A stretch of 64,000 nt of DNA from a virus (IMGVR_UViG_3300020034_000006:1-64000), one strand, 5' to 3'; numbered from the stretch's first letter, positions 4,067 through 43,790 are shown. A program made the numbers and translations. The notes: generated from the sequence alone by a model not told the origin.

Positions 4067-4322
4067 TGTCGTTCGCGTCCAACATGTCTGCGATGTCGCT
4101 TAGCTCTTTGGGAGTGAGGTTAAGCGTGCGAGTCATCTCCTTACCGGCGAACCGAACGCGAAACCAGTCCTCATCATCCGCGGGACCCATGTCGACTACG
4201 CGGCGAATCTCGTTACGTCGGTAGTGGTCACTCATTCCGTCACGCTTTCCATGTCTTCCACCATGGCCTGTGTCGTTAGCCATGCCTCGATAGCGCGGCC
4301 CTGCTCGACTACTGCGCGCCAC
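4059..4322 (-). CDS. Hypothetical protein
   Basis: 87-aa ORF with tight spacing in the operon. Confidence 0.4.
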   Translation of the reverse strand: MARSSRAGPRYRGMANDTGHGGRHGKRDGMSDHYRRNEIRRVVDMGPADDEDWFRVRFAGKEMTRTLNLTPKELSDIADMLDANDNA

Positions 4323-11735: not shown

Positions 11736-12027
11736 CGTTTAGCAGCTCGATGAAGCGTCGGCGTTGTTCCATGCTGAGGTGCTGGAAGTAGAACTTGACG
11801 TGCCCAGGGCCGGCGTAGGCCTTGTAGTTCTTGTCGGTGGGCACTATCTCGGCCCCGCCCTCGACCAGCTCCATGAACAGCTCGGGCTTCATCGAGCCAC
11901 AGAACGAGCAGCGCGGTGCTGGGTCGCCGTGGAACTGGGCCCACTTGTCCTGGCCCTCGACGCGGTCCCAGTCCCCGATCTCTTCCATCCGCCGGGGACA
12001 GGACTGGCGCTTACGCTTCGATATCAT
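11659..12027 (-). CDS. Hypothetical Cys-rich protein
   Basis: 122 aa with CSFCGS. Confidence 0.4.
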   Translation of the reverse strand: MISKRKRQSCPRRMEEIGDWDRVEGQDKWAQFHGDPAPRCSFCGSMKPELFMELVEGGAEIVPTDKNYKAYAGPGHVKFYFQHLSMEQRRRFIELLNDGQVQVAEPGYFYVVPFFCRVNRDG

Positions 12028-12577
12028 ATCGAGACTCTACGCCCTGGCTGCGGCGCACACGAGCGATGTAGTCGGACCGTGTCTCTCCGCGGTTCTTGGC
12101 CCGTGACCAGCCCCGATTGTGAGTCGGACAGAAGCCGTCCTTGATCCGGTTCTCCTCCCCGCCTGGCATCCACAGGTTGCAGGCCACGCAGTGGCCCGAG
12201 CCCGGAACCCGGGCCTCCTCCTCAAGGATGCGCTGAGCCTCGCGACGCTTGGCCCTGCCCATGATGTCCTCGTACACCCCGTCGACCCGCGTGAGGCTCA
12301 GGTCGAGGCCGGTGAGGGCCTTGGTGAACGAGTCGTACAGGGTGCCCTTGCGCATCGAGCGAGTGCACGCCACCGTGCCAGTCTGGTCGTTGTAGCCGGG
12401 GTCCTCTGCGGAGTGGTCGTGGCCACCATGAGCCCGGTCAGAGCTGTAGTGACGTCCCCTCAGGGGGGACTGCTGTTCCTTCGCCACACTCAAGGCGGTG
12501 TCTCCACCGTCGATCAGCTTCTTGGCCACCGTGATCAGATGCCGAGCGATGTGCTTCGGCCGGGGTGCTTGTTGCAT
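12011..12577 (-). CDS. Hypothetical protein
   Basis: 188 aa. The CVACNLW...CPTHNRGW spacing could reflect a metal-binding nuclease-like site, but this is not established. Confidence 0.4.
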   Translation of the reverse strand: MQQAPRPKHIARHLITVAKKLIDGGDTALSVAKEQQSPLRGRHYSSDRAHGGHDHSAEDPGYNDQTGTVACTRSMRKGTLYDSFTKALTGLDLSLTRVDGVYEDIMGRAKRREAQRILEEEARVPGSGHCVACNLWMPGGEENRIKDGFCPTHNRGWSRAKNRGETRSDYIARVRRSQGVESRYDIEA

Positions 12578-13815: not shown

Positions 13816-14105
13816 GCGCTGCAATCCTTCATCACTCGTTGCTTCGCACGGCATATGTCGGCCTGGCCCAAGTAGAAGTGCTTGAGACACACGGGGAACT
13901 GGGCCTCGGACAGCTCTCGCGCTCGCCACCAATCCTCAGTGCCGTCGCTGCTTGCGCCGAGGTCTACCCAGCAGGTGTGAATGCCATCCTTGTGATGATG
14001 CACGATGACGTCACCGTCGGCACCGAGCTTGTATCCGGCTTCGCTCATGCACATGCGAAGCTTCTCCGCCATCGCCTCTGCCTCTTCGAGGGTGGCGTAG
14101 GTCAT
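13812..14105 (-). CDS. Hypothetical protein
   Basis: 97-aa ORF with a 4-nt overlap with the primase gene. Confidence 0.4.
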   Translation of the reverse strand: MTYATLEEAEAMAEKLRMCMSEAGYKLGADGDVIVHHHKDGIHTCWVDLGASSDGTEDWWRARELSEAQFPVCLKHFYLGQADICRAKQRVMKDCSA

Positions 14106-15874
14106 GCGTAGCTCCTGCGCAGCTCGAAGCGAATAGGGGAGTCCGACTCCTCACCCATTGCGTTCTGCACGCCGATGTTGAAATCGATTTGCCACTGGCT
14201 CCCGCCCCACTGGCGGGAGCCGAACTCGACATCGATGAAGAAGTCCCCGGTGTTGAGGTTCGCCGGTTCGCGTTCAGCGGTGAACATCCACGAGTCGACC
14301 CACTCACCCGAGCCCGCCATCGTGATGCGGTTCAGGCCCCTCGACTCCGCGCCCTTCTTGAAGTGGTTGACGATGAGCAGGTTGCTGCCGTGCTCGATGA
14401 ACGGAGCGGCCACTGCGGTGAGCAGTGCGCCCTCCTCGTGGATGTTGGCCGAGTTCGTCTCGGACCCGTGGTAGGCGTAGAACGGGTCAATGACCGTGAG
14501 CACCGGGTCTAGGTGTTCGAGGGCGTTCTCGATCGTTCCCTTGAACGCCGGGCTCAACAGCGGTGCTGTCTGGAACACCGAGTGGATAGGCACGTCACGG
14601 ATGTCACGGATGTCAACCGACTCGGCGATACGAGGCATGCGCCTCGTCCACGGAATGCGCCCACCCTCGCCGATGAACATCACCACGTTGCCTTGCTTCT
14701 CCACCGGGAACTGCCCGAGGAAGGGACTACCCGTCGCCACCGCCAGGGCGAGGTACTGGGACAGGTAGGTCTTCAAGGTTTTCTTCTCGCCTGCGATTTG
14801 ACCATAGGTCGGGATGCACACAACGTTGCGCACAAGCCAGTTCAACTTGAGGTCAGACGCCATCAGCTCTTGCATCGTCCACATGCGCAACCGTGGCTGC
14901 TCCATCGCCAGCACCTTCTCGACGTCATCCTCGTTCCCGCCGGCATCGAGGATGATCTGCTCGATGAAGGTTCGATCCTTGTCGCGCTCTTCGAGCCCGA
15001 CGCTGACGTTGGCCCTCACTCTTGTGCGTGCGCCTTCGAGCGCACGCCGGTACTCCCGCGTCGCCTTCACTGCGTCCGCCCGATCCCTCACAGCGCTCGT
15101 GAAGGCCATTTCGAGGCTCATCAGGGCCAGGGTCGCCCCGGCGTAGCCCAGCAGCTCGTGGCTGCACAGAGCGGCCACTGCGAGAGTCATGGAAGTGTGT
15201 CGGTCACCACGAGGGTCGAAGCTGTTGAAGGCCTCGGTCACCCGGGGGTGCCAGGCGTCCATGGGCTCAAGGCGAGCCTCAGGCGAAGCGTACGGATCAT
15301 CGAGCTTGGCCTCGGCCTCCGCTACCGCTGCGGTCCTGAGGCGTTGCATCACCCAGTCCGGCGCTTGGATCATTGCCGAGAAGTCATGGCCGTAGGCGTA
15401 GTAGTAGCCATCATTGTCTGGGGCCACCACATAGCCGGCGTCGCTGCGGACGTTGACTCCTTTGCAGAGATCATGGTTGCCGACGTGCTCCGAGCGATCG
15501 GGCTTGTTGAGGTAGATGTGAGAGCCACCGGATGGCGTGCGCACCATCGCCGTCCGCCCATCCCACAGTCCGCTCTTTGAGGAAGTAGCAGCGAAGCAAA
15601 CGGCTTCGAGGTTGTTGGGGCCGCTCACACCGCCCTTGACGTCAACATCGAGGACGATGTACCCAAGGCTCCCGGGCACCAGGCCAACCATCATCGTGTC
15701 CTCGTGCTCGAACCACCAGAGGTCGCGGGTCTCGCTTGAGGCGTCCTCGAACCCTCTCTTGACCAGGTGCGTGACCGGGCTCTTGTCGCCACGCAGGGGC
15801 AGCACCTTGCCTCCCATGACCATGAGGGACAGCGCTAGCTCACGAGGGATCATCGGGGTGGAACTCCCATGCAA
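14102..15874 (-). CDS. Bifunctional DNA primase/polymerase (PrimPol-like) domain protein
   Basis: The N-terminal region carries the acidic beta-strand motif GYIVLDVDVKGG and the surrounding pattern typical of the PrimPol N-terminal domain. 590 aa with a long C-terminal domain. No Walker A motif was recognised. Confidence 0.65.
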   Translation of the reverse strand: MHGSSTPMIPRELALSLMVMGGKVLPLRGDKSPVTHLVKRGFEDASSETRDLWWFEHEDTMMVGLVPGSLGYIVLDVDVKGGVSGPNNLEAVCFAATSSKSGLWDGRTAMVRTPSGGSHIYLNKPDRSEHVGNHDLCKGVNVRSDAGYVVAPDNDGYYYAYGHDFSAMIQAPDWVMQRLRTAAVAEAEAKLDDPYASPEARLEPMDAWHPRVTEAFNSFDPRGDRHTSMTLAVAALCSHELLGYAGATLALMSLEMAFTSAVRDRADAVKATREYRRALEGARTRVRANVSVGLEERDKDRTFIEQIILDAGGNEDDVEKVLAMEQPRLRMWTMQELMASDLKLNWLVRNVVCIPTYGQIAGEKKTLKTYLSQYLALAVATGSPFLGQFPVEKQGNVVMFIGEGGRIPWTRRMPRIAESVDIRDIRDVPIHSVFQTAPLLSPAFKGTIENALEHLDPVLTVIDPFYAYHGSETNSANIHEEGALLTAVAAPFIEHGSNLLIVNHFKKGAESRGLNRITMAGSGEWVDSWMFTAEREPANLNTGDFFIDVEFGSRQWGGSQWQIDFNIGVQNAMGEESDSPIRFELRRSYA

Positions 15875-23415: not shown

Positions 23416-23430
23416 GCGATACCGTATCAT
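23416..23430. promoter_or_regulatory. Operator copy a (GCGATACCGTATCAT)
   Basis: 12-bp core CGATACCGTATC (GATAC-N-GTATC inverted repeat) in the divergent HicA-like/repressor intergenic region. Confidence 0.5.
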
Positions 23431-23520: not shown

Positions 23521-23537
23521 GATGCGATACCGTATGT
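23521..23537. promoter_or_regulatory. Operator copy b (GATGCGATACCGTATGT), 12 nt upstream of the repressor ATG
   Basis: Same core with one substitution. It shares the extended GATGCGATACCGTAT with copy a. Confidence 0.5.
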
Positions 23538-23548
23538 TGGATCACGAT

Positions 23549-23977
23549 ATGACCATCTCTGAAATGGAGTCCGCGGCAATGACGCTCGACCCGACGCTCG
23601 ACCCGAGTGCTCGCATTACTCAGCGCGGCTTGGAGCTGTCGGAAGCACTAGGCGCGCTTATCGCCGAAGAGCGCAGGGCGCGCAAGTGGAGTCAGACAGA
23701 ACTAGCCGACAAGCTCGGCATGCGTCAGTCCACCCTCGCCACCTACGAGAGTGGAAGCCGTCAGCTCGGGCATCTGCACGTGCACATCATCGAGGCGCTT
23801 GGTGTCGCCTTGGAGATGCCACGGGGCTCGATCCTGGAACGGCTCGGCTTGGTCGAACGCGACATCGACTTCATCACCTTCGTGATGTCTCGACCAGAGC
23901 TGGACAAACGCATGCAGATGGCGTTCTGCGATCTCTACGTGCTCTTCACGGAGAAGGGCGAGTTGCCAGAGGGCTAG
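23549..23977 (+). CDS. XRE-family HTH transcriptional regulator, candidate immunity repressor
   Basis: HTH segment RKWSQTELADKLGMRQSTLATYESGSR. The ATG at 23549 is in frame with the 23222 ORF and lies immediately after operator b. 142 aa. Confidence 0.65.
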   Translation: MTISEMESAAMTLDPTLDPSARITQRGLELSEALGALIAEERRARKWSQTELADKLGMRQSTLATYESGSRQLGHLHVHIIEALGVALEMPRGSILERLGLVERDIDFITFVMSRPELDKRMQMAFCDLYVLFTEKGELPEG

Positions 23978-24377: not shown

Positions 24378-24532
24378 CTTCGGTCCACCCTCAGGTCAAG
24401 ATCAGGTTTCCCCCAGGTGGCTCAGTCTGCCAGCGGCCATTCTAAGAGTCAAGCGATTGCGATGACGAACGTTCTCCCAGCTCAGGGCACAAGTTACCCG
24501 GTGGTTGCAAGAGCCCCGGCTATTACGATACG

Positions 24533-24937
24533 GTGTCGCTCGTGAGCGCTGCTCGGTCGCCTCTAGGTGAGGCCATCCGCTGGGCCTACCAGCAGGCCGG
24601 CCTGAAGCAGAGTGATGTGGCCAAGGCCCTGCACGTCCATCAGACGATGGTCTCGCAGTGGACGGTCGGCAGGGTCGAGCCGAGCCTCGATCAGATCCGC
24701 CTAATCGAGCAATTCTGCCGAGTCCAGATCGGAGCAGTCCTCGCTCGGGCTGGCTACATCTCCGTCGAGGCAGCCCTCGATCACGTCAAGGAGGTCTTCC
24801 GCGCTGGCAGTGTCGTCCCCGATCTCAGCCGCCAGGATGTTCGCGAGATCATGAACCTCGCCCTCCCCGAACACACCAAACTGAACCTCGTCGCCCACCT
24901 GCAAGGCGATAAGGATCTGACCCAGGCTGTCGGGTAG
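24533..24937 (+). CDS. XRE-family HTH DNA-binding protein
   Basis: LKQSDVAKALHVHQTMVSQWTVGRVEPSLDQIRLIEQF is a canonical HTH_XRE pattern. 134 aa. Confidence 0.6.
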   Translation: MSLVSAARSPLGEAIRWAYQQAGLKQSDVAKALHVHQTMVSQWTVGRVEPSLDQIRLIEQFCRVQIGAVLARAGYISVEAALDHVKEVFRAGSVVPDLSRQDVREIMNLALPEHTKLNLVAHLQGDKDLTQAVG

Positions 24938-26091: not shown

Positions 26092-26103
26092 TCGATACCG
26101 TAT
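26092..26103. promoter_or_regulatory. Operator copy c (GGCTCGATACCGTATCACGGCG)
   Basis: Same 12-bp core. It shares the upstream CGGCTCGATAC with copy d and sits in a divergent promoter region. Confidence 0.5.
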
Positions 26104-26281
26104 CACGGCGTCGATCGGAGTGTCCGGTGGACTATCGAGCCCCTGGACAGGCGGCAAGGACGGCCGGTACTCTGGCGCTCGTGCGAGCGGAGGTTTTACT
26201 CGCCGACCGAAGCTCGCTATTTACCGGGGGCCGTGGGTTCGCCCACGGCCCCCTCGCCTTTCCTCCCCGCGAAGGAAGCCG

Positions 26282-27229: not shown

Positions 27230-27665
27230 GGTCACCGTCGTGTTCCCGCTCCGTGGCGAATCGGGCGGGTACACACTCCGAGTGATGTGACGGCTCTCCC
27301 CATAAAGCAGGTCCATCACGAGGGCAGCGGTGGAGAGGCCCGGGGGGCGGCCCCCGGGCCTCTCCTATTTGCTACGCTCGCAGTGCCCACCTCAGGTCGG
27401 GGTTGGCATCTGAACAACGTTGTGACTTCGGGCCCGGCCTATTGAAGGGCTGGATGGTCGCACGGGGTTCTTTCATCAGGAAACGGCCCCCGCGCTGCGA
27501 TCGGGGGCCGTTTCTGTGTTATGCTGCCGGCGTTGCCTGAGGCAGGAGCCCCCTCCTCCAACGGAAACAAAAGGTAATTGCGACGGTTTCTAGGTCGCGG
27601 CCTAGACCTGAATCCAAAGTCAATGCCCATCAGGAAGCGGGGCGATACCCCTCGCCCCGCTTCCT

Positions 27666-27738
27666 GCGTTTTGGGGCCCTCGTAGCTCAGGGGACAGAGC
27701 GGTCGCCTCCTAAGCGACAGGCCGCAGGTTCGAGTCCT
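27666..27738 (+). tRNA. tRNA-Arg (anticodon CCU, reads AGG)
   Basis: Hand-folded cloverleaf. Acceptor GCCCTCG/CGAGGGC, D-arm GCTC-AGGGGACA-GAGC, anticodon stem GTCGC/GCGAC with loop CTCCTAA, T-arm GCAGG-TTCGAGT-CCTGC, discriminator G. No encoded CCA. Confidence 0.8.
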
Positions 27739-27782
27739 GCCGAGGGCGCTGTGACAATTGTCTTGCCTCTCGGCGGACGGCT

Positions 27783-27795
27783 CGATACGGTATCG
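27783..27795. promoter_or_regulatory. Operator copy d (CGATACGGTATCG, perfect 6-N-6 palindrome), 5 nt upstream of the GTG at 27800
   Basis: Opposite orientation to copies a-c. It shares the GGCTCGATAC flank with copy c. Confidence 0.5.
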
Positions 27796-27799
27796 CATC

Positions 27800-28534
27800 G
27801 TGACGAGACTCAACCAGCTCCTAGGCGTCGAAGCCGGCGTCCGAGACCGCGCTGAACAGGCCCTCGCCGCTGCCAGGTCGGACGTCACCAAGGACGGTCC
27901 CCTCAGCGGCCTCGCTCGCAAGTACGAGCCCCGACAGGAGGGCGGCGAGCAGGTGCCGCCTCAGAGCACGCAGGTGCAGTTGACGGTGAACCACATCACC
28001 GATCAGCTTGCCAAGCACCTCAGCCGCCTGTGGGACGTCACAGCGACGAAGGACTTGACCAACACCGAGGCCAGGGCCGACATCGTCGTTGAGGGCCGCA
28101 CCCTGGTTCCCCAGGTTCCCGCCAGCTACCTGGTGTGGTTCGAGAAGCAGCTCACAGCGCTGCGAGGCGTGCTGGCCAAGCTGCCGGTGCTCGACCCTGC
28201 CGAGATCTGGACCTACGATGAGGCGACCGGGGTCTACCGCACGGAGCCGACGGTCAGCATCCGCCCCAAGAAGGTCTTCAAGAACCACGTCATCGCCGAA
28301 GCGACCCAGTACCACCCCGCCCAGGTGCAGGTCTACAGCATCGATGAGCCCGAGGGTGAGTGGACGACCACCAAGTTCTCCGGCGCCATCTTCGCGACCC
28401 GTCGCCGGCTCCTGGTCGAGCGGATTGACACGCTCATCGAGGCTGTCGCTTTCGCAAGAGGAGAGGCCAACGGGACCACGGTGACTGACCTCGAAGTCGG
28501 TGCCGCGGTGTTCGATTACCTCTTCGCCACCTAG
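27800..28534 (+). CDS. Hypothetical protein (operator-controlled, between the two tRNA genes)
   Basis: 245 aa from the in-frame GTG at 27800. The ORF track's ATG at 27758 would place the operator inside the coding sequence. No recognised motif. Confidence 0.5.
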   Translation: MTRLNQLLGVEAGVRDRAEQALAAARSDVTKDGPLSGLARKYEPRQEGGEQVPPQSTQVQLTVNHITDQLAKHLSRLWDVTATKDLTNTEARADIVVEGRTLVPQVPASYLVWFEKQLTALRGVLAKLPVLDPAEIWTYDEATGVYRTEPTVSIRPKKVFKNHVIAEATQYHPAQVQVYSIDEPEGEWTTTKFSGAIFATRRRLLVERIDTLIEAVAFARGEANGTTVTDLEVGAAVFDYLFAT

Positions 28535-28779
28535 ATCTCCCGAAAGGGAGCGGAGCAAAAGTTGAAGTTGAAGCTGAAGCTAACCTGGCCAACAAATCAG
28601 GTCGGTGAAGCTAAGACTCTCGCTCCTAAGCTAAAGCTCAAGCTAAACCTTCGGATAGAGCGCAGATCAAACCACCGCAATGCGGGTTCGATTCCCGTTC
28701 CGGCCTCCACATGGCTGGATGGTCCAATGGCAAGACTCGGTGGCTCATAACGAGCCTGTGCTCATACGTCCGAACCTAG

Positions 28780-28853
28780 TGTGATGTAGCTCAGTTGGAT
28801 AGAGCACTCGCCTTCTAAGCGAGAAGTCACGGGTTCGACTCCCGTCATCTTCA
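28780..28853 (+). tRNA. tRNA-Arg (anticodon UCU, reads AGA)
   Basis: Canonical D-arm TAGCTCAGTTGGATAGAGCA, anticodon stem CTCGC/GCGAG with loop CTTCTAA, T-arm ACGGG-TTCGACT-CCCGT. The acceptor stem shows two mismatches (positions 1-72 and 3-70) as read, hence the reduced confidence. Confidence 0.55.
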
Positions 28854-28924
28854 AACACTTTCACCGGACCGGGGGGCAAGGGTATGTCCCCCGGTCCACT
28901 TAACGTTTGTGAGCGAATTCAAGA

Positions 28925-29395
28925 ATGAGAAAGATCAACTGGGCTTACGTCTTCGTTTTCGTTCCGATATCGGCACTGGCACTCATCAACCTTGCCCTCG
29001 GCAACTACGGCGGCGCCCTCATCGACCTGCTGGCCCTGACTGGGTTCCTGCTCTACGCCCGCTACGTCAGATCCCATTCCCGTCGAGCGAAGTCTTTCGA
29101 CGCCGAGCTAGCAGCCGAGCTAGAGGCGGCTCCGCCGCCTCCCAGGGACTGGCATCTGACGGTCCGAGGCGAGCGCTACTCGAACCTAGAGTTCACGTAC
29201 CTGGGCTTGGTCATGGGACCAGACGGCATGACGCCGTGTCACCACTGGGTGGTCTTGCGTCCCGTCGACTTGCCGGCCGACGTGGACCCGAGTGAGATCA
29301 ACTTGGTCGGCCACGCCACGGTGGGGGTCAACCCTGACGGTGGCGTGGGGCTCGGCGTGCTCATCAGTGTCGCGTGGGCTGACGGCCCGAGCTGA
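28925..29395 (+). CDS. Membrane protein, first gene of the rightward integrase-side operon
   Basis: 156 aa with two N-terminal TM helices (VFVFVPISALALINLALG and LIDLLALTGFLLYARYV). Confidence 0.5.
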   Translation: MRKINWAYVFVFVPISALALINLALGNYGGALIDLLALTGFLLYARYVRSHSRRAKSFDAELAAELEAAPPPPRDWHLTVRGERYSNLEFTYLGLVMGPDGMTPCHHWVVLRPVDLPADVDPSEINLVGHATVGVNPDGGVGLGVLISVAWADGPS

Positions 29396-29422
29396 AGGGC
29401 GTATCATCCCGGCCATGGGAGC

Positions 29423-29674
29423 ATGGACCGAGGAAGCGTGAGCGTCGAGACCCTGAAGGCCGAACTCCACCAGGCGGCGGACGACCCGAATAGCCCGCTA
29501 GCCACTCTCCCCGAGGGCGATCCTCACCGGCCCACGCCAGAGGCCTTGGCCGAGAAGCACGGGATATCCATGGAGCAGTTCTACGTCGCTGTTGATGAGG
29601 TGATCGCCAGCAGGCTTCCGCTGGCGGGGTCGACGTTCTATCAACGCTGGGTCAAGGAACAGGGGCTTGAGTGA
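29423..29674 (+). CDS. Hypothetical protein
   Basis: 83-aa ORF. Confidence 0.45.
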   Translation: MDRGSVSVETLKAELHQAADDPNSPLATLPEGDPHRPTPEALAEKHGISMEQFYVAVDEVIASRLPLAGSTFYQRWVKEQGLE

Positions 29675-29704
29675 GCTTCATCCACCTCTGGAACCTGGCG
29701 CTCT

Positions 29705-29977
29705 TTGAGCGGGGAGATGGAACCGATGACCAGAGAGCTACCGGCAGCGAGGGACGAGTTCATCATCATCGAGGCCCTTCGCAGCTACGCCAACCACTGC
29801 CTGAACGACCTCCCGATGCACCGCCACACCGACCACGGGTTGGAGCTGGCTCGCCGGGCAAGGCGCGTCCGCGTGTTGGCTGACGAGTACGAGCGAAGCT
29901 TGCCCAGCGACGTCCACGCCAGTCTCGGCCGAGCACGTCCAGCGTCGCTTACCCGCCTCTCGCGGCCCTCGACATGA
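29705..29977 (+). CDS. Hypothetical protein
   Basis: 90-aa ORF. Confidence 0.45.
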   Translation: MSGEMEPMTRELPAARDEFIIIEALRSYANHCLNDLPMHRHTDHGLELARRARRVRVLADEYERSLPSDVHASLGRARPASLTRLSRPST

Positions 29978-30186
29978 CAGACCGTCCCCGCTACGTCTCC
30001 GAGGCTCCGTTGGCCGAAGTACTCGAAGAGCTGCGCGACTACGCCAACGCAGGGCAAGCGGTCAGCAGAGCCGCCTGTGGGCGGATAGTGGTCGAGCTGG
30101 ACAAGCTGCAAGAGGCAGCCGATTCGACCGACCCCATCGCCCTGGCGGGTGTCTATGACGTCCTGGCTCGGTCCCTCGATGAGTGA
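29974..30186 (+). CDS. Hypothetical protein
   Basis: 70 aa with an ATGA overlap with the upstream gene. Confidence 0.45.
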   Translation: MTDRPRYVSEAPLAEVLEELRDYANAGQAVSRAACGRIVVELDKLQEAADSTDPIALAGVYDVLARSLDE

Positions 30187-30429
30187 CAGAACGGGGACCC
30201 CACAGGGTCCCCGTTCACACGCCCGATCCGCAGCTCACGCCATGGCACTGACATCCGGTGTCCCTGCGAAAGGCCGAAGCTCGTGACGCCCTGGGACGGT
30301 GGACCGTTGAAGGAGGCTCAGAGACCGGTTTAAGAACCTGTGCCGGTTACTACGTGCTGTCGAGGTGCACTTTGGCGCCTCGACCTCGCCAAAGTCAATA
30401 TGACCTTCGTCACAAAGGTGATCTCATAG

Positions 30430-30624
30430 GTGAGATGCAAGTTTGCGATCAAGTTCGGCACGACACTCCACACGCGGTGCATGTTCGAGCACGAAGTGAC
30501 GCCCACGTCGCACATCGGCAAGGGGCTCGAAGAGTTCCCGTTTCAGCGCATCGAGTGGTTCTCCGGTGATCGACGCGAGTACGAGACCGACCGTGATGAC
30601 GAGTTCGCTTGGGAAGCTCCCTAG
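30430..30624 (+). CDS. Hypothetical protein
   Basis: 64-aa ORF. Confidence 0.4.
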   Translation: MRCKFAIKFGTTLHTRCMFEHEVTPTSHIGKGLEEFPFQRIEWFSGDRREYETDRDDEFAWEAP

Positions 30625-30795
30625 ATGGCCTGGATAACCCGCAAAGACCCAACGACGCGACTCGACTTCGATTTGCTTAAACGCGGCAGCCTGACCATCG
30701 AGGGGTGCGTCATCCAGGGCCCGGTGGGTGACGTAGTCGCTGTTCTGCTCGAACTGATGGGCGAGTCACGAGATGGAAAGAAGGACGAGTCATGA
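30625..30795 (+). CDS. Unlisted small ORF (56 aa, MAWITRKDPTTRLDFDLLKRGSLTIEGCVIQGPVGDVVAVLLELMGESRDGKKDES)
   Basis: Hand-translated. The ATG directly follows the TAG of the upstream gene, and the TGA overlaps the ATG of the next gene. Confidence 0.35.
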   Translation: MAWITRKDPTTRLDFDLLKRGSLTIEGCVIQGPVGDVVAVLLELMGESRDGKKDES

Positions 30796-31037
30796 GCGAA
30801 ACCCCGACAGAACGCAATCGACGCATCTTCGAGGAAGCAACCGGTAGCGGCGAACCAGTGTTCGTCATCCGAGCCAAGGACATCCTCGGCCCCGCTGCGA
30901 TCCTCGCCTACGCGAGTCTGGCCGACGACACAGCTACTCCCGAGTTCATGGAAGCCCTCCATGACCTTGAGGGCGAGTTCCATGCTTGGAGAGCGGCGAA
31001 TCCTGATGAGATCAAGGTCCCCGATCTCAGGAAGTGA
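30792..31037 (+). CDS. Hypothetical protein
   Basis: 81-aa ORF. Confidence 0.45.
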   Translation: MSETPTERNRRIFEEATGSGEPVFVIRAKDILGPAAILAYASLADDTATPEFMEALHDLEGEFHAWRAANPDEIKVPDLRK

Positions 31038-31231
31038 ACGTGACAAGGTCCGTTGAGGTCATCGAGGGCGACCCACTCACGGGCTTCAAGGACTGCTTCC
31101 TGACCCTGCACGGCTACGACGACGGGACCGTGAGTCTCGTCATCGAGTCGCCCTACGACGACAGAGCAGTCATCCGGCTTGATCCCGAGGGGACGCAACT
31201 ACTCGTGAACTTCGTCACACGACCCCAGTGA
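31034..31231 (+). CDS. Hypothetical protein
   Basis: 65 aa with a GTGA overlap. Confidence 0.45.
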   Translation: MNVTRSVEVIEGDPLTGFKDCFLTLHGYDDGTVSLVIESPYDDRAVIRLDPEGTQLLVNFVTRPQ

Positions 31232-31271
31232 ATGCCCTGGTCAGAGCAGTCGTACCATTCGAGGGTCGCCG

Positions 31272-31796
31272 TTGGGCGAGGTGCGAATGGTACGACCCCT
31301 GTACGCTGGGGTTATGACCGATACCGACACCAACACCACCACCTACTACGCCGCCTACTCCAACCACGGAGGCAAGCGAGTCCATGCCTCCACGGTGCTC
31401 GGTGGCAGCAGCCTCGACAAGGTCGTCGCTGTCTGCGGGGCCGATGTCCACACCACTCGCAAGGGCATGCACTTCGACACACCGGACCTTACGTCCCCGC
31501 GTTGCCGCTCCTGTGCCCAGGTGACGGGGTTCCAGACGGCGCCCCCTCCGGGTCCTCCCGCTGCGCTCAGGATCTGGCGACTCTTCGGCCAGCTTCCGCA
31601 TTGCGGCGGAACGCTGCCCCACTACGACGATCTCGACATGGAGGACGTGGCCGACAAGCTCGACGCACTGGTGAAGTGGTTCGAGTCCAGCCGAGATCAC
31701 CAGGCCGCCCGCGACGCCGAGCTGGTCCGTCACCAGACCGCCGTGCAGGGCCTCCGTTCGTTCCTGTCGCTGCTCAAGGAAGGCGACGAGCTGTGA
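31272..31796 (+). CDS. Hypothetical protein (start possibly the internal MTDTDTN)
   Basis: 174-aa ORF with CRSCAQ...HCGG. Confidence 0.45.
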   Translation: MGEVRMVRPLYAGVMTDTDTNTTTYYAAYSNHGGKRVHASTVLGGSSLDKVVAVCGADVHTTRKGMHFDTPDLTSPRCRSCAQVTGFQTAPPPGPPAALRIWRLFGQLPHCGGTLPHYDDLDMEDVADKLDALVKWFESSRDHQAARDAELVRHQTAVQGLRSFLSLLKEGDEL

Positions 31797-32098
31797 GCCC
31801 CCGCCACCCCCATCATCCCGGAACGATGGACATCGGCTTGGTTGTTAGAGAGATGAACGACGCCTGCAACAGCGTCAGTGGCAAGTCCGGCTGGGCCCTG
31901 CTCGTGTCCCCCACAGAGGACGGCACTGTCAAGTTCAGGGTCTCGGGCAGCGTCCTCCCTCTCCGCCCTCTTCGCTCTGATGGTGAGCGCTACCGGCGGG
32001 GCCATGTCCCGTTCTACGGCGATCAGCACGCCGACGTCTTTCAAGCTCTCCGGTCCGGTCTGGTCGACATGCGCAAGGCACAGGAGTCGCGGCGATGA
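31793..32098 (+). CDS. Hypothetical protein
   Basis: GTG-start sub-ORF of 31232..32098 (101 aa) with a GTGA overlap. The longer 288-aa reading overlaps real genes in other frames. Confidence 0.4.
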   Translation: MSPRHPHHPGTMDIGLVVREMNDACNSVSGKSGWALLVSPTEDGTVKFRVSGSVLPLRPLRSDGERYRRGHVPFYGDQHADVFQALRSGLVDMRKAQESRR

Positions 32099-32457
32099 GT
32101 CCCCGCCCCATGCTCGTCTACGGCGGCTGGGTCATCCGCCAGGTCCCGGGTCACCGCAACCAGGTCCGCGCAGTGGTTGCCACGACCACGAAGAAGGCGG
32201 CGATGGAAGCGCTCGGCGTCACCCGCGGCCATTTCGCTGACTTCTTCAGCGACACCAGCCACGAGCTGGATGTCGAGGCGGCGATGAGCAGCCCCGGCGA
32301 TGTGTTCTGGATGCCGATGGATCTCAAGTTCACCGATCGCAGGTTCATCCCATGGGGTCAGGACTGGAAAGACGACCCTCGGACCACTGATCCCGACGCG
32401 GTCAACCGTGGCTACGAGCGGCGGGCCAAGGAGCTGAAGGGGCAAGGCAATGGCTGA
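32095..32457 (+). CDS. Hypothetical protein
   Basis: 120 aa with an ATGA overlap. Confidence 0.45.
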   Translation: MSPRPMLVYGGWVIRQVPGHRNQVRAVVATTTKKAAMEALGVTRGHFADFFSDTSHELDVEAAMSSPGDVFWMPMDLKFTDRRFIPWGQDWKDDPRTTDPDAVNRGYERRAKELKGQGNG

Positions 32458-32767
32458 GCACGAGATGATCATCCGGGTCAAGGTCAGCGACGACATCGAC
32501 CCGACCACCATCGACCCCGAGGACATCGCGGCCGACGTCATCGACACCTTCACCGACGACCTGCGGCACCGGATCTCCACCGACATCGGTGGGGTCAAGC
32601 TGCTCGGCGCCGAGTGGGTCGCTGAGTGGGACAAGGCTGACACGGTCGCCCAGGCAGAGGCCAGGCGCCTCAGAGGCGTCCTCCACAACCACCCGAGGTC
32701 CGAGCACGTCCGGATGGCCCGAGGCCCTGCCGAGTTCGTGATCGCCGCTCTGCTGGGAGAGAAGTGA
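32450..32767 (+). CDS. Hypothetical acidic protein
   Basis: 105-aa ORF. Confidence 0.45.
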   Translation: MAEHEMIIRVKVSDDIDPTTIDPEDIAADVIDTFTDDLRHRISTDIGGVKLLGAEWVAEWDKADTVAQAEARRLRGVLHNHPRSEHVRMARGPAEFVIAALLGEK

Positions 32768-33096
32768 TGACGTCACCCACCCGCCGCCCCCGGTTCACCG
32801 AGATCGACACCCACGCCGTCATCGGCCGGCTGGTCTTGGACACTACCGAGAGCCTTCGCCTCTGGTCCGACGGGCTGATGAAGATCGAAGACATGTTCGA
32901 TGAGGGCAACGGGGACGAGATCGAGATGACCGTTGAGAACCGAGGCGCCGTGGTGCGCATCGGTCGGCGCCAGCGCCTTACCTGGACCCCGCCGAATGGC
33001 GACCCGGAGGTCTGGTTCGGCATCAACACCCGCGAGGTGTATCTCCGGGTGTGGCACGACGGTTCCGTCAGCATCGAAGGCCAGGTCGACCGATGA
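32764..33096 (+). CDS. Hypothetical protein
   Basis: 110 aa with an ATGA overlap. Confidence 0.45.
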   Translation: MMTSPTRRPRFTEIDTHAVIGRLVLDTTESLRLWSDGLMKIEDMFDEGNGDEIEMTVENRGAVVRIGRRQRLTWTPPNGDPEVWFGINTREVYLRVWHDGSVSIEGQVDR

Positions 33097-33389
33097 GCGG
33101 CAACATCGAGCTGTCGATCCGTCTTCCGGACGCAGCCCGCAACCACGAAGTTGAGCAGTTGATGTTGAGCAAGCCTGGCCTGACGCCCGCTCAGGCATGG
33201 GCGGAGGTCGTCAAGAGGCTGACCGGCGGATGGGCCACCGTCACCATCATCAAGGACCCGACGGTGCCCTTTGCGCACCGTCGGGGTCGCCCCCTCCTGC
33301 ACGGGCTGATCAAGTTCGATACGGATCGGCTCTGCTCGGACGGCCAGTGCGGCGAGTGCTGGGGTTGCCGCCAGCTTGGGCAGGACTGA
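33093..33389 (+). CDS. Hypothetical protein with a C-terminal CxxxxCxxCxxC cluster, immediately upstream of the integrase
   Basis: ATG at 33093 (ATGA overlap). 98 aa ending CSDGQCGECWGCRQLGQD. 3-nt gap to the integrase start. Confidence 0.45.
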   Translation: MSGNIELSIRLPDAARNHEVEQLMLSKPGLTPAQAWAEVVKRLTGGWATVTIIKDPTVPFAHRRGRPLLHGLIKFDTDRLCSDGQCGECWGCRQLGQD

Positions 33390-33392
33390 ACC

Positions 33393-34919
33393 ATGGCTGA
33401 TCTCATCGGTTTCAAGAGGGTGTCCCGCATGGGTAACCGGGACAAGGACGACGACGACTTTCGCTCGGATCAGGAGCAGGAAGACTCGGGCGAGGCCTAT
33501 GCGAAGGCCAACGGCCACCGCATCCTCTACTGGATCGATGAGACCAACTCCGTCTCAGGCAAGACGCTCGATCGCAAGGGCCTGCAAGAGGGCCTGGGGG
33601 ACATCTACGCCGGCAATGCGGACGGCGCCATCGTCATGAAGATGAGTCGCTTCGGGCGTGACGCCGTCGCCGCCATCTCCGAGATCCGCAAGCTAAAGGA
33701 CGCCGGGAAGATCTTCATCGCCGTCAAGGACGGCATCGACACCACCAACGACAGCATCGCCACCCGCATCCTGATGTGGTTCATCGCCACCATGGATGAG
33801 TGGTTCCTCGAAGACATCACCAAGAACTGGGACGACATCACCCGTATCCGGGTGATGGTCGACGGCATCAACACCACCGAGCCCTACGGCTACCGCAAGG
33901 ACCAGATCTTCGATGACCACGGCAAGCGCGTCGGCGGTACCCGCCTCCTGGTGCCCGTGGCGGAGGAGGCTGAGTGGGTCGTCAAGATGTTCAAGAAGCG
34001 CAAGCTCAAGATGTCGTGGCAGAAGATCGCCGACTACCTGAACGAAGAGGGCGTCCGCACCCGGGCGGGGAAGCACTGGACTCACAACAGCGTCAGCGGC
34101 GTCGTCAGCTGCCGCACCTACCTCGGTGAGGTGCGCTCGGGCGACTACGTCAAGGAAGGGGCCCACGATGCGATCGTGGGCCTGGCCCTGTGGACCGCGG
34201 CGAACGCCCACCAGCACACCAACCCTCGCTTCGAGAATATGGACTACCCGCTGTCGGGCATCATTCGCTGCTCGTCCTGCGGAGTGAAGATGGTGGGCCG
34301 CACCAACCGTAAGGCCAACAAGACCTACCGCTACTACGACTGCCGACGTAAGCACGGCTTCGGCAAGTGCCCCAACCCCATGCGGGTGCGGGCAGACATC
34401 GTAGAGGCGGAGATCGACTCGATATTTGTCGAGCGGTTCATCAACGCCTGCTGTGACGTTACGGCCGAGGGCAGCACCACCGGCGTCGACCTAGAGGCCG
34501 CTGTGTTGGTCCTAGAGGACGCCGACGCCGACCTGCACGACTTCCTCACGTCGGAGACCACGGCGGAGCTGAGGCGGGAGCTGGGCCAGAAATACGTGAA
34601 CGAGGGGACGCGGGCTCGCATGGATCGCGTCAAGGTGGCCCGCAAGGCCGTCACCGAGGCGCAGAACGCCATGCTCGGCGTCGAGCTGCCCGAGAACCTG
34701 GCCGAGATCTGGGAGACGCTGGGAGCCCAGGAGCGCCACGTCTTCCTAGACGCTGCCTTCGCCATCATCGCCGCCCACCCCGGCAACGTCGTTAGCTTCT
34801 GGACCGTCAACGAGCCCGGCACCCCCGATGGCCTCCCTACCAGGGGCTTTGAGGTCAGTGAGGCGACACCGATCCCGATGCGTAATGCGCCAGCGGGTGC
34901 CCGGGTGACGACGGGCTAG
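33393..34919 (+). CDS. Large serine recombinase (serine integrase)
   Basis: Resolvase-like N-terminal domain with catalytic-Ser motif FKRVSRMG and VMKMSRFGRD. Recombinase domain. Zinc ribbon CSSCGVKMVGRTN...YYDCRRKHGFGKC. Long coiled-coil C-terminal region. Confidence 0.85.
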   Translation: MADLIGFKRVSRMGNRDKDDDDFRSDQEQEDSGEAYAKANGHRILYWIDETNSVSGKTLDRKGLQEGLGDIYAGNADGAIVMKMSRFGRDAVAAISEIRKLKDAGKIFIAVKDGIDTTNDSIATRILMWFIATMDEWFLEDITKNWDDITRIRVMVDGINTTEPYGYRKDQIFDDHGKRVGGTRLLVPVAEEAEWVVKMFKKRKLKMSWQKIADYLNEEGVRTRAGKHWTHNSVSGVVSCRTYLGEVRSGDYVKEGAHDAIVGLALWTAANAHQHTNPRFENMDYPLSGIIRCSSCGVKMVGRTNRKANKTYRYYDCRRKHGFGKCPNPMRVRADIVEAEIDSIFVERFINACCDVTAEGSTTGVDLEAAVLVLEDADADLHDFLTSETTAELRRELGQKYVNEGTRARMDRVKVARKAVTEAQNAMLGVELPENLAEIWETLGAQERHVFLDAAFAIIAAHPGNVVSFWTVNEPGTPDGLPTRGFEVSEATPIPMRNAPAGARVTTG

Positions 34920-34957
34920 GAGTTCGCAGAAGAGCTGAAAGACCGCCTCTTGAGGAT

Positions 34958-34983
34958 CGGGCCGGCTCCTGTGGGAGCCGGCC
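34958..34983 (+). terminator. Intrinsic terminator hairpin GGGCCGGCTCC-tgtg-GGAGCCGGCCC followed by TTCC
   Basis: 11-bp perfect stem 39 nt after the integrase stop. Confidence 0.5.
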
Positions 34984-35064
34984 CTTCCGCGTCTGTGACG
35001 ACTTTTCTCCTCTATTTCGTCACTATCCATTGCGTTCATCTCCTATAGCGCTAGAGTCGCCCGC

Positions 35065-35658
35065 ATGGTCAAAACCACCACCACCCCCGCACCCGATGCC
35101 GAAGACACCGTCCGCCGCTTCATGCTCTTCATCGAGGACCCGAGCCAGCTCATCGACCAGGCCGCGGTCGACAAGTACACGAAGGCCGTCGCCGACGCCA
35201 CGGACCCGATCGACAAGCTGAAGGCCATGGCCGACCTGGACAAGGCCAAGAACATCGATGAGGGCCCACTGCGCGACGGCTTCGTCAAGGTCGCCAAGGC
35301 CTACGCCGACGCCGAGGGCCTGCCGACGACGGTCTTCCAGCACATGAAGGTGTCGGACGACGTCCTCAAGGACGCCGGCTTCGAGATCACCACGCCGACC
35401 AAGACGCTCCGGACGAGGAACGGCACCGAGCGCCAGCGAGCCAAGTCCGTGCCCCTGGACGACATCAAGGCCTGGATCGGCAAGACGACCAGCACCTTCA
35501 TCCTGAACGACGTGATCAGCGGCATCGGCGGCAGCCCCGCCACCGTGCGCCTGGCGATCACCGAGATGACCGCCGATGGCAAGGTCGAGAACCTGGGTGT
35601 CCTGCCCAACTACACGGGTCGAGGCCGGGCTCCCTTGCACTACCAGCTCAAGAAGTGA
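35065..35658 (+). CDS. Hypothetical protein, possible winged-helix DNA-binding C-terminus
   Basis: 197 aa. The C-terminal STFILNDVISGIGGSPATVRLAITEMTADGKVENLGVL resembles a wHTH. Last rightward gene before the convergent terminator. Confidence 0.45.
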   Translation: MVKTTTTPAPDAEDTVRRFMLFIEDPSQLIDQAAVDKYTKAVADATDPIDKLKAMADLDKAKNIDEGPLRDGFVKVAKAYADAEGLPTTVFQHMKVSDDVLKDAGFEITTPTKTLRTRNGTERQRAKSVPLDDIKAWIGKTTSTFILNDVISGIGGSPATVRLAITEMTADGKVENLGVLPNYTGRGRAPLHYQLKK

Positions 35659-35681
35659 GCCTTAGCTCCCGGAACAACAAA

Positions 35682-35707
35682 GGAGCCCGCCCCAAGGGGC
35701 GGGCTCC
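35682..35707. terminator. Bidirectional terminator GGAGCCCGCCCC-aa-GGGGCGGGCTCC between convergent operons
   Basis: Near-perfect 12-bp inverted repeat where plus-strand and minus-strand operons meet. Confidence 0.55.
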
Positions 35708-35792
35708 TTCGCGTCTGGCGAGACATGTGGGGGACGATCCCGTTCCGGGACGGGCGTGTCGGCGGAAAAGGACCGCCCCCACGACCGAGATC

Positions 35793-41837: not shown

Positions 41838-43790
41838 TCAGGCGATCTTGTCGACCACCGCGCGTACAAACCTGATCGCTCCTGTAGTTGATGTCTTGCG
41901 AATGACGAGTGGGCACCACCCCGCTATCTCGTTGACCACGGTCGTTGACAGACGAGTCGTGACCACAGTCGGGCTGCCCGCGACATTCGCCTTGGTCCCA
42001 CAAGAGACGAGGGATTGAGTTGCGCCGAGCCAACGGCCCAGAAGCGCCTCGATCGTGCCGAGCCCGGTGTCTTCTTGAGTGGTGACTGTCACGCGGTAGG
42101 TGCCAGGGTCGAGCCAGATGCGATGGCGCCGTTCACCCACTGTCGTGCCGCCGCCTGATTGGTCATAACCGCCAATTCCACCCGTCAGAGCGGTCCATGC
42201 TTCTGTCCAGGAGGACCGGAATGTGGGGAAGCGTGACGAGTCGATGATCAACTGGGTCGGCGTCACTGGCTGTTGAGAGATCGGTGTCGGATCGAGCACC
42301 TGTCCCATGGCGTCAGCGAACCAAATGTTGCCAGCCTCGTTGGGATGAACGGTATCGGTCGTCAGATCCGCACTCCACAGGCGGTCTGGCCGCATCGCTC
42401 CGAGGTCATAGACCGAAGCTCGGTCGGTCCCGAGCTGCACCGCTGCCGCTCGTGCGGCATTGACATAGGTCAGATCGGTGCCGGGCACCATAACGAACAG
42501 GACACCTGCGTCGGTGCTGCTGACCCGAGCGTCGATCCGGTTGACGATCGTCACCAAATCGTTCTGGAATTGCGTCGGCGTCCGACCGGTCTGATCGTCG
42601 TTGTAGCCAAGGAGGATGACGATGCCTCCAAGGAACAGGTCGCTGCCCGCTAGCATTGCCGACCACGCATTGGTCGCCTGCCCGGCCCAGGCGTCAGCGC
42701 CGAAGCCCGCGTGGGTGCCGTCGAGCAGGATCACGCTGTTGTTGCTCAGGAACGCGAGATCCCCGTCGTACCACTCGACACCTTCGAGGATGAACGTGCC
42801 GGAGTTTGGCGTCATCACCAACGTGTGGAACCCGTATTGTGCGTTTGTTCCAAACGTCGCCGATTGCCCCGGAAGCTCAGCACCGTTGGCGTTGATCACC
42901 GTCTGAGAAACACCATCCAGCGTGACAGCGCAAGCGGTGGGTCCGCCGGTCGAGCGGGTGTAGAAGACAGAGATCTTGTCGCCGAAGTACGAGATGGTCG
43001 CGCTGCCGGCCCCGGCGCTCGGGATGTTGGCAGCATGGAAGCCGAGGCCGTGGTCAATGTTGCCGGTGACCGAGCCAGTGAACGTCCAAGGATCGTCTGC
43101 GCCTGGCCAGTTGGCATCTCCGACCTGCGAGAAGACGTTGGCCGATGCTGGCAGTAGTCCGTGAGTTCCGGGCTGGTTACCCATGAAGCGTCGCCGCAGT
43201 CGGTCCATCATCCGGTTGCGGTACTTGCCTCCACCGAAGCCTTCGGTCATCGAGTCGCCGATCATCACGAGCTGGACCGAGAGACCACCCGTGCTTCGAG
43301 CGATGGCGAGCTTCTGCCGCCAGCGCATGACGGCTGCCTGATGCTCCAGGAACTCGATGCGCGGGATGTGTTCCAGACGGCTTGCCGCGTGTGCGATGAC
43401 TGAAGCCTGACCACTGCTGACGTCAACGGTGACGGTCACTGCTCCAGCAGAAACGTCGAAAGACGTTGGAGCGGTAAGTGTCTCCCTGGCCTTGTCCGAC
43501 GGAGTCCACTTGCCGATGATGAGCGGTTCCATGGTCCCATCGATGTCCTCGTTCAAGAAGAACTGGGCGATCGTATGGAGGAAGTTGTCAGTGATTGTGT
43601 CGTCGGCGATCACGGTCATGACATCGCCGTTGATCGTCAGGTCGAGAAACTCGGAGCCCAGCTTCGCCTCGAACGCACGGCCGGCGAGCGAGCCCGCAGG
43701 CCACCCCGTGATCGTGAACGTGATCGTGGTGCCCGGCCGGAACGTGAGGTTAAGGCCAGGCGGTCGGACATCATTCGTCATGATTGCCAC
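41838..43790 (-). CDS. SGNH/GDSL-hydrolase-domain protein (650 aa), putative virion-associated esterase
   Basis: Block I VQLVMIGDSMTEGFGG, block III LLGYNDDQT and block V DTVHPNEAGN (DxxH). About 250-aa non-catalytic regions flank the catalytic domain on both sides. Confidence 0.7.
   Translation of the reverse strand: MAIMTNDVRPPGLNLTFRPGTTITFTITGWPAGSLAGRAFEAKLGSEFLDLTINGDVMTVIADDTITDNFLHTIAQFFLNEDIDGTMEPLIIGKWTPSDKARETLTAPTSFDVSAGAVTVTVDVSSGQASVIAHAASRLEHIPRIEFLEHQAAVMRWRQKLAIARSTGGLSVQLVMIGDSMTEGFGGGKYRNRMMDRLRRRFMGNQPGTHGLLPASANVFSQVGDANWPGADDPWTFTGSVTGNIDHGLGFHAANIPSAGAGSATISYFGDKISVFYTRSTGGPTACAVTLDGVSQTVINANGAELPGQSATFGTNAQYGFHTLVMTPNSGTFILEGVEWYDGDLAFLSNNSVILLDGTHAGFGADAWAGQATNAWSAMLAGSDLFLGGIVILLGYNDDQTGRTPTQFQNDLVTIVNRIDARVSSTDAGVLFVMVPGTDLTYVNAARAAAVQLGTDRASVYDLGAMRPDRLWSADLTTDTVHPNEAGNIWFADAMGQVLDPTPISQQPVTPTQLIIDSSRFPTFRSSWTEAWTALTGGIGGYDQSGGGTTVGERRHRIWLDPGTYRVTVTTQEDTGLGTIEALLGRWLGATQSLVSCGTKANVAGSPTVVTTRLSTTVVNEIAGWCPLVIRKTSTTGAIRFVRAVVDKIA

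Follow-up and report, generated by a model that had tools for sequence, protein, structure and literature searches.

We analysed a cluster of small genes beside a serine integrase in the viral sequence IMGVR_UViG_3300020034_000006:1-64000, a stretch of 64,000 nucleotides (nt) hereafter called the window. The cluster (positions 28925-34919, + strand) comprises fourteen small open reading frames (ORFs), g01-g14, followed by the integrase gene (int). We lean, with modest confidence, towards reading it as an ordinary array of small, uncharacterised phage genes with rapid turnover, composed of conserved control elements and exchangeable single-gene cassettes and divided among several transcription units, rather than as one 15-gene system. 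The original prediction had proposed a translationally coupled 15-gene operon ending in int, either a lysogeny-expressed accessory system or an excision/integration control unit. The array would be the variable part of the integrase-strand arm of a new temperate siphophage-like genome of ~83-89 kb, whose host is probably an Acidimicrobiia-type actinobacterium.

The comparison rests on four relatives, two of which are short contigs. Two further loci (L013 and L014) were 99.98-99.99% identical to the corresponding stretches of the window.

REL: IMGVR_UViG_3300021976_000008, 89 kb (loci L001/L002/L009); 61% identity in DUF7873, 48-50% in int and 52% in g16
L015: Logan SRR8487021, 19.7 kb; 60% identity in DUF7873, 78% in int and 58% in g16
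L011: a 1997 bp contig, with 94% nt identity to the window in the flanks
L018: a short, more distant contig carrying a relative of g10

All long relatives retain the same scaffold, consisting of the DUF7873 gene, a tRNA gene, hairpin I1, element B, int, the spacer between int and g16, and g16. Between these landmarks the gene content is almost wholly different and changes gene by gene at gene boundaries, the pattern of variable content between conserved flanks seen in a Cluster N-type island. The genes of the array are as follows (all + strand; lengths in amino acids, aa).

g01, 28925-29395: 156 aa, with an N-terminal hydrophobic (membrane) segment; homologue at the matching position in L015 (41% over 141 aa), similarity in REL confined to the transmembrane (TM) region
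g02, 29423-29674: 83 aa, acidic ORFan with no counterpart in any relative
g03, 29717-29977: ~83-86 aa, starting at 29717 or 29726; no counterpart in any relative
g04, 29974-30186: 70 aa, acidic ORFan overlapping g03 by ATGA; no counterpart in any relative
g05b, 30430-30624: 64 aa, an uncertain gene
g06, 30625-30795: 56 aa, ORFan abutting g05b with no gap
g07, 30792-31037: 81 aa, acidic; 95% identical to the C-terminal part of L015 5783-6154, whose product has an additional N-terminal TM segment
g08, 31034-31231: 65 aa, acidic ORFan with no counterpart in any relative
g09, 31314-31796: 160 aa, start fixed by the L011 homologue (91% identical); absent from L015 and REL
g10, 31793-32098: 90-101 aa; 96% identical in L011, 57% in L015, absent from REL
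g11, 32095-32457: 120 aa
g12, 32450-32767: 105 aa, acidic; 78% identical in L011, N-terminal 52 aa 77% identical in REL, absent from L015
g13, 32764-33096: 110 aa, ORFan, absent from L015 and REL
g14, 33093-33389: 98 aa, with a strand-helix-helix N-terminal 45 aa resembling a ribbon-helix-helix (RHH) and four C-terminal cysteines

L015, despite 78% identity in int, has only g01, g07 and g10 in common with the window, and REL (int 50%) only the TM region of g01 and the N-terminus of g12. Even the close relative L011 shows the same behaviour: g11 has been precisely deleted at its gene boundaries, a different gene stands in place of g13, and g14 is 91% identical over its first 35 aa while its C-terminal 62 aa, including the Cys4 cluster, have been replaced. 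A possible distant relative of g11 follows g12 in L011; it was seen by eye only and is not significant in BLASTP. The gene abutting int also differs, being g14 in the window, a g10 relative in L015 and an unrelated 77 aa Cys4 protein in REL. Across three relatives the recurring genes are g01, g07, g10 and g12 only, never all of them at once, and no set of block genes was found together. Such sparse recurrence, with a different int-abutting gene in each relative, speaks against both a coherent multi-gene system and a conserved role of g14 as recombination directionality factor (RDF), two ideas that had been suggested: turnover of the genes is nearly complete, PADLOC matches none of them, and g14 is missing from L015 and REL and truncated in its homology to L011. 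Mosaic arrays of ORFans next to an integrase are routine in actinobacteriophages. Separately, the variable block of REL holds a gene that resembles ParB nucleases by eye (among L001 11061-12161 and 12158-12358), and DUF397-like small proteins occur in the variable blocks of both REL and L015 (L015 4168-4362, with a weak match to Pfam PF04149 in L015); genes of both kinds are typical of actinomycete mobile elements.

Database searches recovered little. None of g01-g14 matched Pfam, seven of them also at E up to 10, and none matched PHROGs or the sequences in the PDB. PADLOC-DB models gave no match to 16 proteins at E up to 0.01, nor did NCBIfam to eight of the small proteins (g01, g07 and g09-g14). 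Against GenBank phages there was no match by tblastn with concatenated g01-g14 or with g16, or by megablast with the 28-36 kb region. A profile search with g10 over 5.8 billion clusters found 3 proteins, and an exhaustive HMMER search with g12 over 1.84 billion representatives gave 6 matches. The concatenated g01-g14 query found nothing among the best 8000 candidates from 5.8 billion proteins, a search that was probably insensitive as it missed the relatives of g12. Most of the g01-g14 products are acidic. The claim that g01 is a two-TM membrane protein holds in part: residues 3-28 pass the Kyte-Doolittle threshold (1.6, 19-residue window), and a second segment is hydrophobic, weaker and below threshold, hence plausible only. 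The Cys4 end noted for g14 is present (Cys at residues 81, 86, 89 and 92). An AlphaFold2 (AF2) model of g14 from its single sequence has a predicted local distance difference test score (pLDDT) of 56.5 overall and 61-80 over a strand at 4-9 and helices at 14-26 and 32-44, which is low confidence, and Pfam, including its RHH profiles, gave no match to g14 at E up to 10.

The packing of the genes was examined at each junction. Every credible ORF from the second tRNA gene (28780-28853) to int lies on the + strand, as originally described, and the int ATG (33393) does lie 3 nt downstream of the g14 stop. Of the reported overlaps, those at 29974, 30792, 31034, 31793, 32095, 32764 and 33093 are 4-nt ATGA or GTGA overlaps and that at 32450 is an 8-nt overlap; at 30625 a TAG is followed directly by ATG (0 nt), an abutment rather than an overlap. 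The chain of 15 genes is not continuous, being interrupted by gaps of 243 nt (30187-30429), 82 nt (31232-31313), 27 nt and 42 nt. The two largest gaps are non-coding, structured and conserved in relatives. An ORF at 30258-30569, considered as a candidate gene, was excluded by frame-breaking 1-2 nt indels in the homologous L015 sequence. At 10 of 14 junctions in the block the genes overlap or lie at most 3 nt apart, against 12 of 20 among the - strand genes at 35.8-45.7 kb and 20 of 27 among those of L015, both sets having been called independently by databases. Tight coupling is thus the normal style of this genome and nothing special to the block. An integrase at the tail of an operon is likewise not the anomaly it was taken for: int of lambda is the distal gene of the long PL operon, and overlap is the norm here. 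Nor is int the last gene on its strand, as it is followed, after a conserved hairpin, by g16.

The two larger gaps correspond to elements A and B, the best-conserved parts of the block.

Element A, 30183-30474, + strand: conserved and non-coding; hairpin I10, ~210 nt of structured sequence, and the ribosome-binding site and first 15 codons of g05b
Element B, 31204-31313, + strand: conserved putative control region of the integrase-proximal unit

Element A has 91% nt identity to L015 5450-5737, although the genes on its left side are unrelated. It opens with I10, a perfect 12-bp hairpin (30189-30216) directly 3′ of the g04 stop, with one compensatory pair. The 1-2 nt indels between the window and L015 mean that no ORF is conserved across the element, and its predicted fold is more stable on the + strand (z -3.9) than on the - strand (z -2.0). 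Conservation of g05b is limited to its first 15 codons, where L015 keeps only a 17-codon ORF; both substitutions in these 45 nt are synonymous in the g05b frame.

Element B was found in the window, L011, L015 and REL, each time ahead of different genes. It consists of a GTGA-N6-GTCAC palindrome (31204-31219), an invariant CCTGGTCAGAG box, a long hairpin (31249-31296) and the hexamer TACGCT (31302-31307), which is invariant and lies 6 nt upstream of the g09 ATG. The fold has a predicted energy of -41.1 kcal/mol (z -4.2), and 6 of the 31 predicted pairs of the hairpin are preserved through changes on both sides among the four phages. At the g09 start the sequence TACGCTG(G/C)GGTTATG is invariant in the four phages save for one base; its GGGG, 2 nt from the ATG, is too close to serve as a Shine-Dalgarno site. 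No Rfam family matched elements A and B at gathering score in the window, or at E up to 1 in 30100-31400. Exact-word scans of IMG/VR with the two elements found none, and nhmmer detected no further copies in the window or the loci, A being single copy.

The region around int has the following features.

Large serine integrase (int), 33393-34919, + strand: 508 aa, with Pfam domains and a match to PHROG 95
Hairpin, 34959-34984, + strand: perfect 11-bp GC stem 40 nt past the int stop, predicted terminator of the int unit

The protein has the domains of a large serine integrase (LSI), namely Resolvase (PF00239, residues 5-142), Recombinase (PF07508, 191-273) and Zn_ribbon_recom (PF13408, 286-341), with an R9-V10-S11 motif and a match to the PHROG 95 integrases at 2e-68. 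Homology to L015 begins 7 nt upstream of the int ATG, so no conserved promoter directly adjoins int, and the preceding gene lies 3 nt away in the window and 35 nt away in L015 and overlaps int by 1 nt in REL. The absence of an adjacent conserved promoter, together with an upstream gene that always abuts or nearly abuts, indicates that an operon most likely ends in int, in agreement with the original prediction of an integrase at an operon tail. The nearest conserved non-coding element upstream is element B. Stable conserved hairpins within the array region (28866-28896, 30189-30216 and 31249-31296) and the -10-like motif at the g09 start, whose activity is predicted, would split the array, and the unit that ends in int is probably g09-int, comprising 7 genes in the window, 5 in L015 and 6 in REL. 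The hairpin past int (-30.7 kcal/mol, z -4.4) has arms invariant in REL in an intergenic region of ~80% nt identity. We considered this spacer, with its 26-bp dyad, as a possible attP; the dyad's invariant arms and its varying centre, TGTG here but GATGA in REL, are more in keeping with a terminator. An exact look-up of the integrase returned no record, and a scan of genome contigs with the integrase alignment found no prophage copy, only an unrelated Bacteroidota recombinase.

Upstream, the head of the + strand island (27676-35658) carries a candidate promoter and operator. The island runs in the order tRNA-Arg(cct), DUF7873, tRNA-Arg(tct), g01-g14, int and g16.

tRNA-Arg(cct), 27676-27749, + strand: identified by ARAGORN and Rfam
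P_DUF, 27763-27799, + strand: promoter-like site with -35 TTGCCT (27763-27768), a 17-nt spacer, -10 TACGGT (27786-27791) and 8 nt to the GTG at 27800
DUF7873 protein, 27800-28534, + strand: first coding gene of the island; Pfam PF25283, 4.5e-90, HMM positions 1-242 from residue 1
tRNA-Arg(tct), 28780-28853, + strand: identified by ARAGORN and Rfam
Hairpin I1, 28866-28896, + strand: directly past the tRNA gene and 28 nt before g01, resembling a terminator or processing site
CGATAC-N-GTATCG sites, 23417-23429, 23525-23537, 24526-24538, 26093-26105 and 27783-27795: operator-like palindromes, with a weaker site at 12019-12031
XRE-family helix-turn-helix (HTH) genes, 23591-23977 and 24533/24542-24937, + strand: Pfam HTH_3/HTH_31, 1e-8 to 3e-10

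Spacing and both hexamers of P_DUF are kept in L015 and REL, the -35 being TTGCCT, TTGACC or TTGCCC in the three phages. The palindrome CGATACGGTATCG (27783-27795) overlaps its -10. Five such sites occur in the window against 0.66 expected, all within 23.4-27.8 kb, and two of the positions are conserved in REL. The one at 24526-24538 overlaps the -10 of the second XRE gene (HTH2, starting at 24542); both XRE genes are conserved in REL (51-65%) and are candidate immunity regulators. With a putative operator over its -10 that is common to an XRE regulator gene, P_DUF is predicted to be a repressor-controlled early promoter. Leaderless units in Actinobacteria have a -10 of the form TANNNT ~6-8 nt before the start codon. 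The corresponding pattern, TANNNT-N6-8-(A/G)TG, occurs 12 times on the + strand of the 64-kb window, and 4 of these are the starts of HTH2, DUF7873, g09 and g16, all four preceded by intergenic regions. It also falls exactly at three predicted - strand gene starts (12027, 25465 and 38423), and leaderless units may be general in this phage. A scan for E. coli-type promoters gave 2 against 1.7 expected, a chance level; the only + strand match in 22-38 kb (29379-29407, CTGACG-17-TATCAT, 9/12) lies at the end of g01, 15 nt before g02. Hairpin I1 (-29.3 kcal/mol, z -3.4) is conserved in L015 and REL with compensatory changes in its stem.

These features suggest the following model. The island would have a fixed scaffold, made up of an operator-controlled leaderless promoter with DUF7873, tRNA and hairpin, then element A, then element B, and finally int, its terminator hairpin and g16. 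The slots between these landmarks would hold small, mostly acidic ORFans, swapped one at a time at gene boundaries. Transcription of the int unit would begin at element B, where TACGCT-N6-ATG would make g09 leaderless, and end at hairpin 34959-34984, with int last and translationally linked. Upstream of it, genes g01-g08 would make up one unit or two, with transcription that starts at the DUF7873-tRNA promoter and reads through hairpins I1 and I10, in the order P_DUF, DUF7873, tRNA, I1, g01-g04, I10 and element A, then g05b-g08. A promoter of its own would serve g16, whose unit would close at a bidirectional terminator. The small genes would act singly as accessory or early genes, co-expressed with int at infection or induction and not as parts of one machine; host takeover, exclusion and anti-defence are possible roles.

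Several observations weigh against this model and point instead towards one long early operon in the style of lambda PL, running from P_DUF through the tRNA and g01-g14 to int, an arrangement we regard as possible, if somewhat unlikely. Elements A and B and hairpins I1 and I10 would then act as RNA, for instance as processing sites, stabilisers, attenuators read through by antitermination, or translational control sites. The genes are co-oriented and closely packed, no promoter of their own was found for g01 and g05b, and P_DUF alone has both hexamers and a conserved operator common to XRE regulator genes. The paired substitutions that preserve the stems of I1, I10 and element B are a sign that base pairing, and so RNA structure, is under selection. 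The covariation in element B argues for a role at the RNA level, and a long polycistronic transcript accounts for it no less well than a DNA promoter does. Neither I10 nor the element B hairpin has a U-tract, so these may not terminate transcription. The promoters and terminators are all predictions from sequence, the four relatives are a small sample, and most of the small proteins were covered in the largest databases through the probably insensitive concatenated query. A single long operon does not, however, readily account for the invariant TACGCT, which in four phages stands precisely 6 nt ahead of the g09 ATG, a leaderless pattern found at three other gene heads, nor for a GGGG too near that ATG for ribosome binding of the Shine-Dalgarno type.

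The two proposals made at the outset fare less well. A lysogeny-expressed accessory island for superinfection exclusion, defence or anti-defence, like that of Cluster N mycobacteriophages, would explain the hypervariable content between conserved flanks on the strand of integrase and repressor, the g01 membrane protein at the same position in three phages and the many small, acidic products. We nevertheless consider it distinctly unlikely: the -10 of the head promoter bears the palindrome of the XRE promoter, the expected mark of a repressed early promoter, tRNA genes lie within the same unit, no gene set recurs together, and PADLOC, Pfam and PHROG matches are lacking. An integration/excision control unit, with g14, g10 or g12 as an RDF or regulator of int, appears more doubtful still. 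In its favour, g14 is translationally linked to int and combines an RHH-like N-terminus in AF2 topology with a Cys4 tail, the int-abutting gene of REL also encodes four cysteines, and g10, common to the window, L011 and L015, abuts int in the last of these. No gene of the int unit is present in all relatives, however (g14 is absent from L015 and REL, g10 from REL and g12 from L015), and the C-terminus of g14 is replaced in the near-identical phage L011. The RDFs that serve large serine integrases share neither a fold nor a fixed location and can be replication proteins encoded elsewhere (PMC11795197), so adjacency to int carries little weight.

A more speculative reading, which we think unlikely, sees in elements A (~250 nt) and B (~85-110 nt) new cis-regulatory or non-coding RNAs of phages. 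They would provide fixed "docking" boundaries for gene cassettes and post-transcriptional control of int, and the acidic cassettes would be a rotating anti-defence or exclusion set timed with the lysis-lysogeny decision. Such control may work by attenuation, by processing of the RNase III type, or through the conserved 15-17-codon ORF acting as a leader-peptide switch.

Downstream of int the island closes with one further gene and its flanking signals.

g16 promoter-like site, 35030-35064, + strand: -35 TTGCGT, 16 nt, -10 TAGAGT (35052-35057), 7 nt to ATG
g16, 35065-35658, + strand: 197 aa, predicted winged-helix DNA-binding protein
Hairpin, 35680-35709, no strand assigned: perfect 14-bp palindrome between the convergent + island and - late genes, predicted bidirectional terminator

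The promoter-like site reads TAGGGT-N7-ATG in REL. The AF2 model of g16 has a pLDDT of 90.4 with a C-terminal winged HTH, and a fold search supports the winged helix only. Members of the family (~195 aa) have a helical N-terminal domain, a C-terminal winged helix and an invariant GRGRAP-type C-terminal motif; from this motif a role as an Lsr2/H-NS-like silencer is a lead only. Many of the 136 homologues lie on large Acidimicrobiales chromosomal contigs, with no phage genes in their neighbourhoods. That the family is common on chromosomes of Acidimicrobiales metagenome-assembled genomes points to the host lineage and to capture of the gene from the host. L015 carries an extra, partial paralogue of the g16 N-terminal domain within its variable block (3705-4133). 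The hairpin past g16 has a predicted energy of -30.1 kcal/mol (z -5.6). The tails after the int and g16 hairpins (34985-34995 and 35710-35718) are nearly identical, (C)TTC(C)GCGTCTG, which suggests a common terminator design.

Some further observations concern the tRNA region and the wider window. The tRNA gene after DUF7873 is homologous in three phages (window 28780-28853; L015 2870-2942; L001 10958-11031) with a different anticodon stem-loop, being Arg(tct) in the window and L015 and Gln(ctg) in REL, which resembles an anticodon switch. Between DUF7873 and this gene (28540-28780) lie tRNA-like remnants of the T-arm/acceptor end (GGTTCGATTCCCGTTCCGGCCTCCA) and AAGCT-rich short repeats, and 28659-28765 gives a weak YrlA-like match below threshold (21.9 bits against a gathering score of 69). 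Just 5′ of tRNA-Arg(cct), three perfect 13-15 bp GC hairpins with T-rich + strand tails (27332-27365, 27480-27514 and 27631-27666) have no Rfam match above threshold and could be stacked terminators or small RNA genes. The window has ~62% G+C. Its AT skew is positive at 28-36 kb only and changes sign nowhere else, matching the + strand island. Structural and lysis genes lie on the - strand (tape measure, 60992-63931; GDSL lysin, 41838-43790), and replication genes include a prim-pol/AAA protein (14102-15874) and FtsK (2870-4066). Phage genes thus flank int on both sides, an arrangement expected of a phage genome, free or assembled, rather than of the end of a prophage. The segment 2000-8000, which includes the FtsK/SpoIIIE-like gene, has 56-58% G+C against 61-65% elsewhere and poor codon-usage model scores, and may have been acquired recently.

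Our analysis therefore corrects the picture of a 15-gene operon: int is most likely the last gene of a short operon that has a conserved control region, and the overlaps are the normal packing of the genome. The block typifies the stock of "dark matter" genes in phages; its lineage, probably one infecting Acidimicrobiia, is poorly sampled. The leads of use lie in non-coding sequence, as elements A and B are more conserved than the surrounding genes and are the only parts deserving follow-up. From the small set of putative leaderless promoters with a common operator, a map of the lysogeny switch can be drawn and put to the test. No close relative of the integrase has been characterised, and the enzyme is a possible tool once attP and attB are found; attP was not located in the analysis of the window.

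Among known systems, the array resembles phage "morons", actinobacteriophage arrays and the variable centres of Cluster N in that single ORFans are swapped in collinear genomes beside the integrase/immunity region, with promoter-like and terminator-like elements flanking the genes. It differs in that the cassettes mostly overlap in frame-shifted chains without a promoter and terminator each. The predicted heads of HTH2, DUF7873, g09, g16 and at least three - strand genes correspond to actinobacterial leaderless units, apart from a -35 that is weak or absent at g09. The full LSI domain set aligns int with characterised LSI/RDF pairs (Bxb1 gp35/gp47, TG1 and phiC31 gp3; PMC11795197), whereas no RDF candidate is conserved with the integrase among the relatives; the known RDFs share no fold and are not recognisable by sequence. 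Compared with lambda PL, the integrase is a serine rather than a tyrosine recombinase, neither N/nut-like antitermination nor Xis has been identified, the promoter-like element lies 2 kb upstream of int and not within the adjacent gene, and transcripts appear leaderless. What the two have in common is a repressor-controlled early unit, as predicted here, with small non-essential genes, the integrase last and a structured element downstream of int. Operons of several small early or accessory genes that end in an integrase are already known, lambda PL being the classic case, and the present example comes from an unsampled lineage.

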